Below, piece by piece: positions 53,388 to 54,914 of a stretch of DNA of 54,958 nucleotides. This DNA is from Clostridia bacterium (GTDB taxonomy: Bacteria; Bacillota; Clostridia; TANB77; UBA1234), in NCBI GenBank assembly GCA_900753135.1, contig CAADXZ010000200.1:1-54958 (forward strand), given 5' to 3'. The position numbers were made by a program, and so were the translations under genes. The notes below the pieces were generated by a model, which saw only the letters and a list, made by a program, of their open reading frames with translations, was not told the DNA's origin and did no database searches. Numbering within the stretch: the stretch's first letter is position 1; the number at the start of each line of letters is the position of its first letter.

Positions 53388-54914
53388 CTATTTAATATTC
53401 CACGCTGTTACTGAACTTAGTCCATCGCTTGATGTATCTACTATATCTAAGAGCTTAGTGCTTAAAGAAACTACAGGGCGAAGACCATACGCCGGTGCGT
53501 ACGTATTAGCGGTAGAACCGCACAAGATGTAACCGTCCGCAGCACCAGAATATGCATGACGCAATTCGAAATAAGCGTACTCATTATCAGAGTACATGTA
53601 CACGCACGACGAAGCCAGCCAGCCTCTGTGTGTATCATCTCCTCCTAGTATTTCATTTATAACCGCATTACTAGCACCGGGATTGTACCAATAATATGTT
53701 CTTGATGTTAATATCGGTGTAGTATTACTTATATTATCATTATAATCATTCTTATTTGCGGCTGTGTGTGTTACACCACTTGCATCATCCCATGTATAAA
53801 ATCTTGGTTTATCTACTCCTGTTGTTAATGATGCTGTATGCTTTTTAGCCGTGTATACTTTTCCGCCTGCTTCTACAGGTTTTAATTCATCATCCGGCGT
53901 ATCTGCTGGATACCATGCATATCTTAAGTTGTCTGTTGGTTCTATGTATCCCGTTGCTTCATTCAAATCTTCTATTGTCATACTTCTTGCTACCAATCCT
54001 TTGTCTGTATTTGAATATAGCTTTTCACATAGTCTATTCAATTCATCTGCCCCATATAAATATCCTGTTACTCCTTGCAATTTTACACTATTTACTGGTC
54101 CTTCTGTTGTTATTAATATTCTTCCTGTACTTTCATCTATACTCAATATTCTCCATTTTGCATTTGTTACCGTTGTTAGCATCTCTGATAATGCTCCTGT
54201 TTTACTTGCTAATGTTGATACTTTCTTCTCTGTTGTTAATTCATAATTTACATAGTTTCCTACTTCTATTTTGCTTACTATTTCTTCAAATTCTTTCTTT
54301 GTTAATCCATCTTCTAATAGCTCTCTTCCCTCTAATTGGCCATTTGATGTTATTGCTATTGTTATTGGTAAGTTTGCTACTACAACATTCATATCCCCTG
54401 TTGCTTCTCCTGAGCTTTCAGCTACTTCTGATGTATCATTTATTAAATATTTATTTTCATATTCATATGGTGGCCATACAAATACTTTTCCTTCTTTTGT
54501 TACTGCATATGTTACTTCTACTTTTGATTTAGATTTTGTTTCTACTTTCATTACTGGTAGCTTTATTCCTATATCTGCTGTTTTTTCTACTATTGTGTAA
54601 TCTGGTACTCTTCCTTTTGATAACACATCTGCATCTGTCTTTCCTCCTTTTGCTACATAGTTATACGCTTGTGCATCTGTTATTTGTGAGCCTTCTGCTG
54701 CCATTTCTCCCCTTACTGTTACTGCTTTTTGAACTATCGCCTCTTGTACCTCCGATATGTTTGTTACAAACTTTGAATAGTCTGCTTTTCCTATTGTGCT
54801 TGTTGAATTGTTGAATGCTATTGAGGCCATTATTATTACTACTATTATTGTTATTACTAGTGCTATTAATGATACTCCTTCCTCATTTTTTCTTAATCTT
54901 TCCATTTTCTTCAT
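53388..54914 (-). CDS. Large surface protein with pilin-like N-terminus (EG|VSLIALVITIIVVIIM) and C-terminal lectin-like domain; paralogue of 399-1910
   Basis: ORF track 508 aa, collinear with the 503-aa paralogue. The likely start is the ATG at 54905 (M4). Confidence 0.8.
   Translation of the reverse strand: MKKMERLRKNEEGVSLIALVITIIVVIIMASIAFNNSTSTIGKADYSKFVTNISEVQEAIVQKAVTVRGEMAAEGSQITDAQAYNYVAKGGKTDADVLSKGRVPDYTIVEKTADIGIKLPVMKVETKSKSKVEVTYAVTKEGKVFVWPPYEYENKYLINDTSEVAESSGEATGDMNVVVANLPITIAITSNGQLEGRELLEDGLTKKEFEEIVSKIEVGNYVNYELTTEKKVSTLASKTGALSEMLTTVTNAKWRILSIDESTGRILITTEGPVNSVKLQGVTGYLYGADELNRLCEKLYSNTDKGLVARSMTIEDLNEATGYIEPTDNLRYAWYPADTPDDELKPVEAGGKVYTAKKHTASLTTGVDKPRFYTWDDASGVTHTAANKNDYNDNISNTTPILTSRTYYWYNPGASNAVINEILGGDDTHRGWLASSCVYMYSDNEYAYFELRHAYSGAADGYILCGSTANTYAPAYGLRPVVSLSTKLLDIVDTSSDGLSSVTAWNIK
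53472..53624 (-). other. Adenine-poor, GC-rich hypervariable segment inside the C-terminal domain (GWLASSCVYMYSDNEYAYFELRHAYSGAADGYILCGSTANTYAPAYGLRPV)
   Basis: Hand count over 153 nt: about 52% G+C, about 16% A on the coding strand, 34 of 51 codons end in T/C, 8 Tyr. Confidence 0.6.

Follow-up and report, generated by a model that had tools for sequence, protein, structure and literature searches.

A DGR variable repeat in a pilin-like gene of gut Clostridia, probably a non-adjacent target of an Msl-type cassette

Diversity-generating retroelements (DGRs) are an established type of targeted hypermutation. In their paradigm, an AAY-rich template repeat (TR) gives rise, by A-to-N substitution, to a variable repeat (VR) at the C-terminus of a target protein. 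In the element of Bordetella phage BPP-1 (mtd-avd-TR-brt), the 3′ boundary of the VR is set by the IMH and the 5′ boundary by homology, so partial replacement of a VR, and hence the formation of mosaics, would be allowed. The BPP-1 element is phage-borne, has a single, adjacent target and carries a GC-rich inverted repeat after the IMH. In Treponema denticola, one cassette serves several paralogous targets (TvpA and seven scattered ones), some of them non-adjacent, which are thought to be surface proteins; its accessory gene is HRDC, and the structure of TvpA, a lipoprotein, has been solved and shows a C-type lectin fold. Msl-type DGRs, classified as “Architecture D” (PMC5758913), have the order target, MutS-domain-I-like protein (Msl), Avd, TR and reverse transcriptase (RT), with adenine-specific mutagenesis, a C-terminal VR and an IMH/IMH* pair, and those of Bacteroides diversify type V pilus tip adhesins (bioRxiv 10.1101/2024.11.15.621889). 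Non-adjacent DGR targets have been documented, and the inverted repeat downstream of the IMH is found in 34% of DGRs and is not obligatory (PMC5758913).

Here we analyze a 54,958-nt stretch of a Clostridia bacterium genome (contig CAADXZ010000200.1; hereafter, the window). Our main reading, to which we assign a probability of roughly 90%, is that positions 53466-53620 (minus strand) are a DGR VR in a non-adjacent target of an Msl-type DGR. With the Msl-type elements this system shares the gene order, the adenine-specific mutagenesis, the C-terminal position of the VR and the IMH/IMH* pair, whereas its host is a low-GC, spore-forming, Clostridia-like gut bacterium, its target belongs to no Pfam family and its RT contains a conserved +1 frameshift. 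Unlike the Bacteroides type V pilus tip adhesins, the target has a type IV-pilin-like N-terminus. As in T. denticola, a single cassette appears to serve several paralogous and partly non-adjacent targets that would be surface proteins, but here the accessory genes encode Msl and bAvd, the N-terminus of the target is pilin-like and its fold is unconfirmed. The paradigm of BPP-1 (AAY-rich TR, A-to-N substitution, 3′ IMH boundary and homology-set 5′ boundary) also applies, although the present system is chromosomal, has at least two target loci and displays no detectable inverted repeat.

The variable sequence lies in a gene whose longest ORF encodes 508 aa (53388..54914, minus strand), with a pilin-like N-terminus, a β-rich middle and a C-terminal variable domain. 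The preliminary description had singled out a patch of this gene as adenine-depleted, GC-rich and rich in NNY codons. This patch (53472-53624, minus strand) is translated as GWLASS...GLRPV, residues 431-481 of the ORF, among which Tyr, Ser, Gly, Ala and Asp are abundant. It contains 16.3% A and 51.6% G+C, and 34 of its 51 codons are NNY, compared with 45.2% A, 33.6% G+C and 26% NNY in the remainder of the gene. The anomaly is borne out against the rest of the window: among 13,537 sliding 51-codon windows taken from the 44 ORFs, the patch ranks first for scarcity of A (z = −4.3) and for G+C content (z = +4.0), with the NNY count raised, not extreme (z = +2.3; maximum elsewhere 40). A 503-aa paralogue in the same window (399..1910, minus strand) has the same architecture with a non-diversified C-terminal segment. 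Its collinear segment (480-632) had been called ordinary and is so, with 34% A, 34.6% G+C and 22 NNY codons; this C-terminal sequence is also found in the database relatives P0079 and P0089. Just downstream of the paralogue is a 67-nt repeat in two copies (31-97 and 131-197; 76% identical), each with a hairpin, GGAACACGCTGTGTTCC.

Searches of the window itself by tblastn and blastn detected neither the components of a cassette (RT, Avd, Msl and TR) nor a further copy of the patch, as the preliminary description had noted for RT, Avd and TR. We built a framework pattern from the invariant bases of the VR and scanned it over the GTDB representative genomes. The pattern returned a single match, on contig CAVHNT010000002.1 (L007), and this match is an adenine-rich TR between a bAvd-like gene and an RT gene, downstream of a target homologue and an Msl gene. 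The Msl protein contains MutS domain I (PF01624, E 1e-9), the bAvd protein matches PF22296 below the Pfam cut-off (E 2.5e-4), and the RT matches RVT_1 (E 3e-16) and has the motifs IGNMTSQ and YQDD. The TR is 155 nt long and runs GGCTGGCTTCGTCGT...GGTCTTCGCCCTGTAGCTTCT; it includes 12 AAY codons and 40 adenines, 35 of which are at codon positions 1-2. In blastn it aligns with 53466..53620 (minus strand) of the window at 83.2% identity over 155 nt (E 6e-43), and it has no match in the 503-aa paralogue. A DGR RT and a TR of about 150 bp outside the window, as had been predicted, thus exist on contigs of related strains. The patch stands as described, with the template-aligned repeat unit, 53466-53620, shifted by a few bases from the limits first given.

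Relatives of the RT were searched for with its 212-aa C-terminal half, which returned copies 98% identical on many contigs, and the cassette is present in whole or in part on 14 further contigs (L016-L029). Where the flanks are covered, the layout is SMC, SpoIIE, Bro-N, target (505 aa), Msl, bAvd, TR, RT and CotJA/B/C. In some strains the edge of a mobile element or prophage is found past the cassette and cotJ genes or inside cotJA (L007:3941-7769, L020:10858-12068, and in L022, L023 and L026); encoded there are a large serine recombinase (intact in L007 but in fragments in L020, L022, L023 and L026), a LexA-like repressor and an HNH protein. In L016, L017 and L025, cotJABC is intact at the corresponding cassette-flank position. 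The framework, TR body and TR leader patterns returned no match in viral contigs or JGI metagenomes.

A second group of gut Clostridia-type contigs (L008-L014) has the same Msl-bAvd-TR-RT layout and intact RTs which are ~70% identical. We considered these as a source of the window VR and rejected them because their TRs are only ~70% similar. They share a conserved TR leader, GGGCATAGTTGTAAAGGCTGGCTT, with different TR bodies, and the cassette copies of L008 and L009 adjoin a target of >1,089 aa with Flg_new repeats. Together these contigs look like members of a broader DGR lineage in which targets have been exchanged.

Differences between TRs and VRs fall on template adenines: In 13 cis TR/VR pairs from related contigs, each pair has 14-24 mismatches on TR adenines, and the only exceptions are the fixed position 151 (C in the TR, T in the VR) and two singletons. 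In the L007 pair, 24 of 24 mismatches are on adenines (binomial P 8e-15). Across 11 non-mosaic VRs, 38 of the 40 TR adenines vary, as opposed to 7 of the 115 other positions. The window VR differs from the TR at 25 positions, not counting the IMH position, and 16 of these are template adenines (P = 7e-5). Mismatches at template adenines, which the preliminary description had anticipated, are therefore seen in all 13 cis pairs and, in a less pure form, in the window. The mutable core of the window VR, from the first to the last variable template adenine (TR positions 16-133), corresponds to 53488..53605 (minus strand).

The richness of the product in Tyr, Ser, Gly, Ala and Asp, and the similar composition of related members, could also be expected from ordinary point mutation combined with diversifying selection on a Tyr/Ser/Gly/Asn-rich binding loop, in which case the nucleotide composition would be a by-product of amino-acid usage. 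Such selection would not lead one to expect a non-coding repeat of the patch, rich in adenine and located between the bAvd and RT genes, nor the disparity between adenines and other template positions described above. The adenine-specific differences between TRs and VRs refute it; we regard it as the most improbable of the explanations considered, and take the patch to be, almost certainly, a VR written by a DGR.

The variation among strains is located in this same stretch. The 90%-identity cluster of the target orthologue includes 47 distinct sequences, and in 15 aligned members the differences are sparse over most of the protein, become concentrated toward the C-terminus and peak in the patch. 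The variable columns, concentrated at ~431-476, contain up to 7 residues each and are interspersed between invariant ones, which form the scaffold SS.V........A.F..R.AYSG...G...C.STA...AP..GLRPV in the 15 members. The pattern at the DNA level matches that at the protein level: strains whose genes share 97-99% identity in the initial 1,100 nt differ in the sequence of the VR stretch, and there are 14 distinct VRs among 21 instances. Comparison of contigs thus bears out the suggestion of site-specific polymorphism in the patch among otherwise near-identical strains. Identical VRs are also found in strains from different samples that differ elsewhere, which indicates slow or episodic diversification.

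The 3′ end of the VR is invariant and GC-rich. The sequence GGTCTTCGCCCTGTAGTTTCT (53466..53487, minus strand) is the same in every VR and has a T where the template has a C, at TR position 151. This position is C in all four variants of the template type found in L007 (TR7) and T in every VR compared, and the same holds for the pair of a third template type, TR30, and its VR; the two versions of the element can be written GGTCTTCGCCCTGTAG(T)TTCT, present in every VR, with (C) in every TR. No adenine-type variation is seen downstream of TR position 133. By these sequence comparisons, the invariant end behaves as an IMH/IMH* pair. We found no stable GC-rich inverted repeat or hairpin after the VR: the fold of 53390-53490 is −5 kcal/mol (z = 0.9), and 170 of 200 shuffles of this region fold as well.

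The window VR is unusual in its number of non-adenine differences: it has nine from the nearest known template, and other remote VRs have 1-4. These are not randomly distributed. At each of the nine positions the VR of contig L015 departs from TR7 as well, which leads us to conclude that the window VR is a mosaic of two template types: its positions ~20-89 carry the non-adenine framework of the L015 VR, and its positions ~95-155 that of TR7. L015 encodes a more divergent paralogue of the target (P0003), with Msl (94% identity) and bAvd (89% identity) downstream of it. Contig L030, which encodes an 85% identical relative of the RT, was considered as the origin of the L015-type template, but its TR proved to be a third type. 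This TR30, whose own VR has 20 adenine mismatches and no others, matches six of the nine differences, and part of the L015-like framework is thus also present in it.

The mosaic extends beyond the VR. The first ~1,080 nt of the target gene are 94-100% identical to the orthologues on contigs L002, L004 and L006. The region of gene nt ~1150-1400, including the AT-rich 100-150 nt before the VR, is closer to the L015 paralogue than to these orthologues. The mosaic tract, which comprises pre-VR sequence and the 5′ part of the VR, lies approximately at 53506..53756 (minus strand) and resembles L015/P0003 more than the orthologues do: sliding identity in the tract is 81-86% to L015 and 70-76% to L002, L004 and L006. 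Both partial-length retrohoming into an older VR and gene conversion between paralogues are consistent with this structure.

A gene that is truly mosaic in this way could suggest that the patch was acquired by recombination, from a divergent allele or a foreign donor of higher G+C, with no involvement of a retroelement, and the preliminary description had named a donor tract as the case that would overturn its reading. As the main explanation this is wrong, and we consider it highly improbable: the GC-rich part coincides with the homology to the TR, and the differences from the TR are enriched at adenines. Moreover, the mosaic tract includes ordinary AT-rich sequence ahead of the VR, so recombination does not explain the composition of the patch. 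What remains of the donor-tract idea is a real mosaic tract over the pre-VR sequence and the 5′ part of a DGR-written VR.

The absence of RT, Avd, Msl and TR from the window makes the window gene a non-adjacent (trans) target. Contigs L002, L004 and L006 contain the orthologue in the context of the window gene, with iPGM, a SleB-like hydrolase, the target, a SpoOB-type kinase, a deacetylase, YabP and YqfD, and none of them has an RT or cassette within 10 kb on either side of it. Around the window gene, no cassette is present within the 53 kb available on one side. Over 11.6 kb the window and L002 share 98.6% identity, which places the window and L002-type contigs in one species. The cassette contigs are probably from the same species: the target of L016 (P0127) belongs to the same 90% cluster as the window-type orthologues, and cassette-linked and window-type copies of the target are 97-98% identical over the first 1,100 nt. 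The species thus appears to carry one cassette-linked copy and one distant copy of the target, the window gene being the distant one, and a single cassette appears to have two or more target loci. The window allele is represented by a single database entry, on one 43-kb contig, and co-residence of a cassette with a window-type locus in one genome is suggested by sequence identity across assemblies.

Database gene calls give the target 505 aa, with the start ATG at 54905, three codons after the start of the longest ORF, and the database protein P0001 is 100% identical to its product. The protein has hundreds of database homologues, in many of which the C-terminal Tyr/Ser/Asn/Gly-rich pattern recurs. 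Searches against Pfam and NCBIfam returned no family for the body of the protein. AlphaFold2 models the whole protein with a mean pLDDT of 87 and residues 241-508 with a pLDDT of 92, and in this model the VR forms a β-meander. The preliminary description had placed the VR in a lectin-like C-terminal domain. The assignment as a DGR VR stands, but the lectin-like fold is not confirmed: Foldseek searches of PDB and BFVD with the full-length and C-terminal models returned no significant match (the best, non-significant leads are CLEC12A in PDB, with E ~2, and phage DUF6273 proteins in BFVD, with E 0.2-0.3 and TM 0.3-0.4), and none of 83 family members matches a lectin-type (C-type-lectin-type) domain of Pfam.

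The N-terminus displays a pilin-like signal and hydrophobic helix, G13-VSLIALVITIIVVIIMASIAFN (54810..54878, minus strand), in which G13 is followed by a 22-residue hydrophobic stretch and a helix is predicted for residues 16-73. N_methyl gives weak matches, below the cut-off, in 76 of 83 family members (best E 0.0018), and in a profile search of PDB sequences only pilin N-termini match, also weakly (type IV pilin PilE1, E 0.011). The Glu at +5 is absent: the mature protein would begin with VSLIAL..., in which Ala occupies +5, and the family consensus, GISLIALVITII, likewise has no Glu. This N-terminal segment forms a repeat family (D3) common to three window genes, those of the 503-aa paralogue, an 852-aa protein and the 508-aa target, in which K/E-G-V-S-L-I-x-L-V-I-T-I-I-V is encoded at 1813-1882, 41812-41881 and 54814-54883, respectively. 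The gene of the 852-aa protein (39330..41888, minus strand) has five tandem 78-nt repeats at its 3′ end (39487-39876), which encode Cys-rich 26-aa modules, ATCTTPxTCTRCGxTxGGALGHxYS, and a Listeria-Bacteroides (Flg_new) repeat is present in the protein too. Among the window ORFs scanned, we noticed no gene for a prepilin peptidase or for pilus assembly. The target most likely encodes a pilin-like protein exposed at the surface, with its C-terminal β-rich domain serving as a diversified ligand-binding face.

We then considered whether the VR in the window is a live target or a relic, which was written by a DGR in the past and, following loss of the cassette or death of the RT, is now inherited as ordinary DNA and slowly drifting. 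A relic would be in keeping with the absence of a cassette from the 55-kb window, with the nine non-adenine mismatches to the nearest TR and with the identical VRs common to strains from different samples. However, the nine mismatches are not those of random drift, as they all coincide with departures of the L015 VR from TR7 and six match TR30, and both the IMH-like end and the reading frame of the window VR are intact. Furthermore, loci with TRs 98.7-100% identical to each other carry nine different cis VRs, which implies that the clade with these RTs has been diversifying.

The RT gene is also pertinent to this question. Every RT of the clade has an interrupted frame and is called as two ORFs (L007:2114-3098, with the junction at L007:2474-2484; likewise in L016-L032), and without recoding this would give an inactive enzyme, as a relic would have. 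The junction sequence is AGTAGACCTCGGATTAGG. Compared to intact relatives, all 17 loci have one extra base at the site AGA-CCN-(C/A)GG-A, where L024 has AGG in place of CGG, and a +1 shift is needed to read through it. A recent pseudogene or an assembly error was rejected as the cause, since SPAdes, MEGAHIT and Logan assemblies all show the split, which persists across ~20% nucleotide divergence. Substitutions between L007 and L030 favour third codon positions, read in frame 0 before the site (36 of 60) and in frame +1 after it (94 of 132), a pattern that argues against a relic and points to purifying selection on both halves in their own frames. In the L016 lineage the +1 frame contains a stop codon five codons ahead of the site, so a separately initiated product with the conserved GLGT motif is excluded. 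These alignments are better explained by a conserved +1 frameshift, probably programmed, at a rare Arg codon than by a dead gene. We think it unlikely that the window VR is a relic, and lean toward its still being a live target in the window's genome.

It is a tentative idea, to which we give slightly less than even odds, that the RT is made only via a programmed +1 ribosomal frameshift, with the rare Arg codon in the A site, and that this throttles the diversification of the pilin-like surface proteins of gut Clostridia. We found no report of regulated recoding of a DGR RT in the searchable literature.

By analogy with established DGR biology (BPP-1; PMC5758913), the template of the cassette would be transcribed and the complex of RT and Avd would copy it into cDNA, with random bases placed opposite adenines. 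The cDNA would then replace the VR, with the IMH setting the 3′ boundary, and in this way ~23 codons of the C-terminal domain would be rewritten.

An anomaly in composition, noticed by eye, here correctly flagged an orphan DGR target whose retroelement is not part of the sequence examined. Both the mosaic VR and the conserved RT frameshift offer testable leads on the completion of retrohoming and on the control of its rate. The finding adds a pilin-like family of uncultured, spore-forming gut bacteria, unclassified in Pfam, to the surface proteins that are diversified by DGRs.
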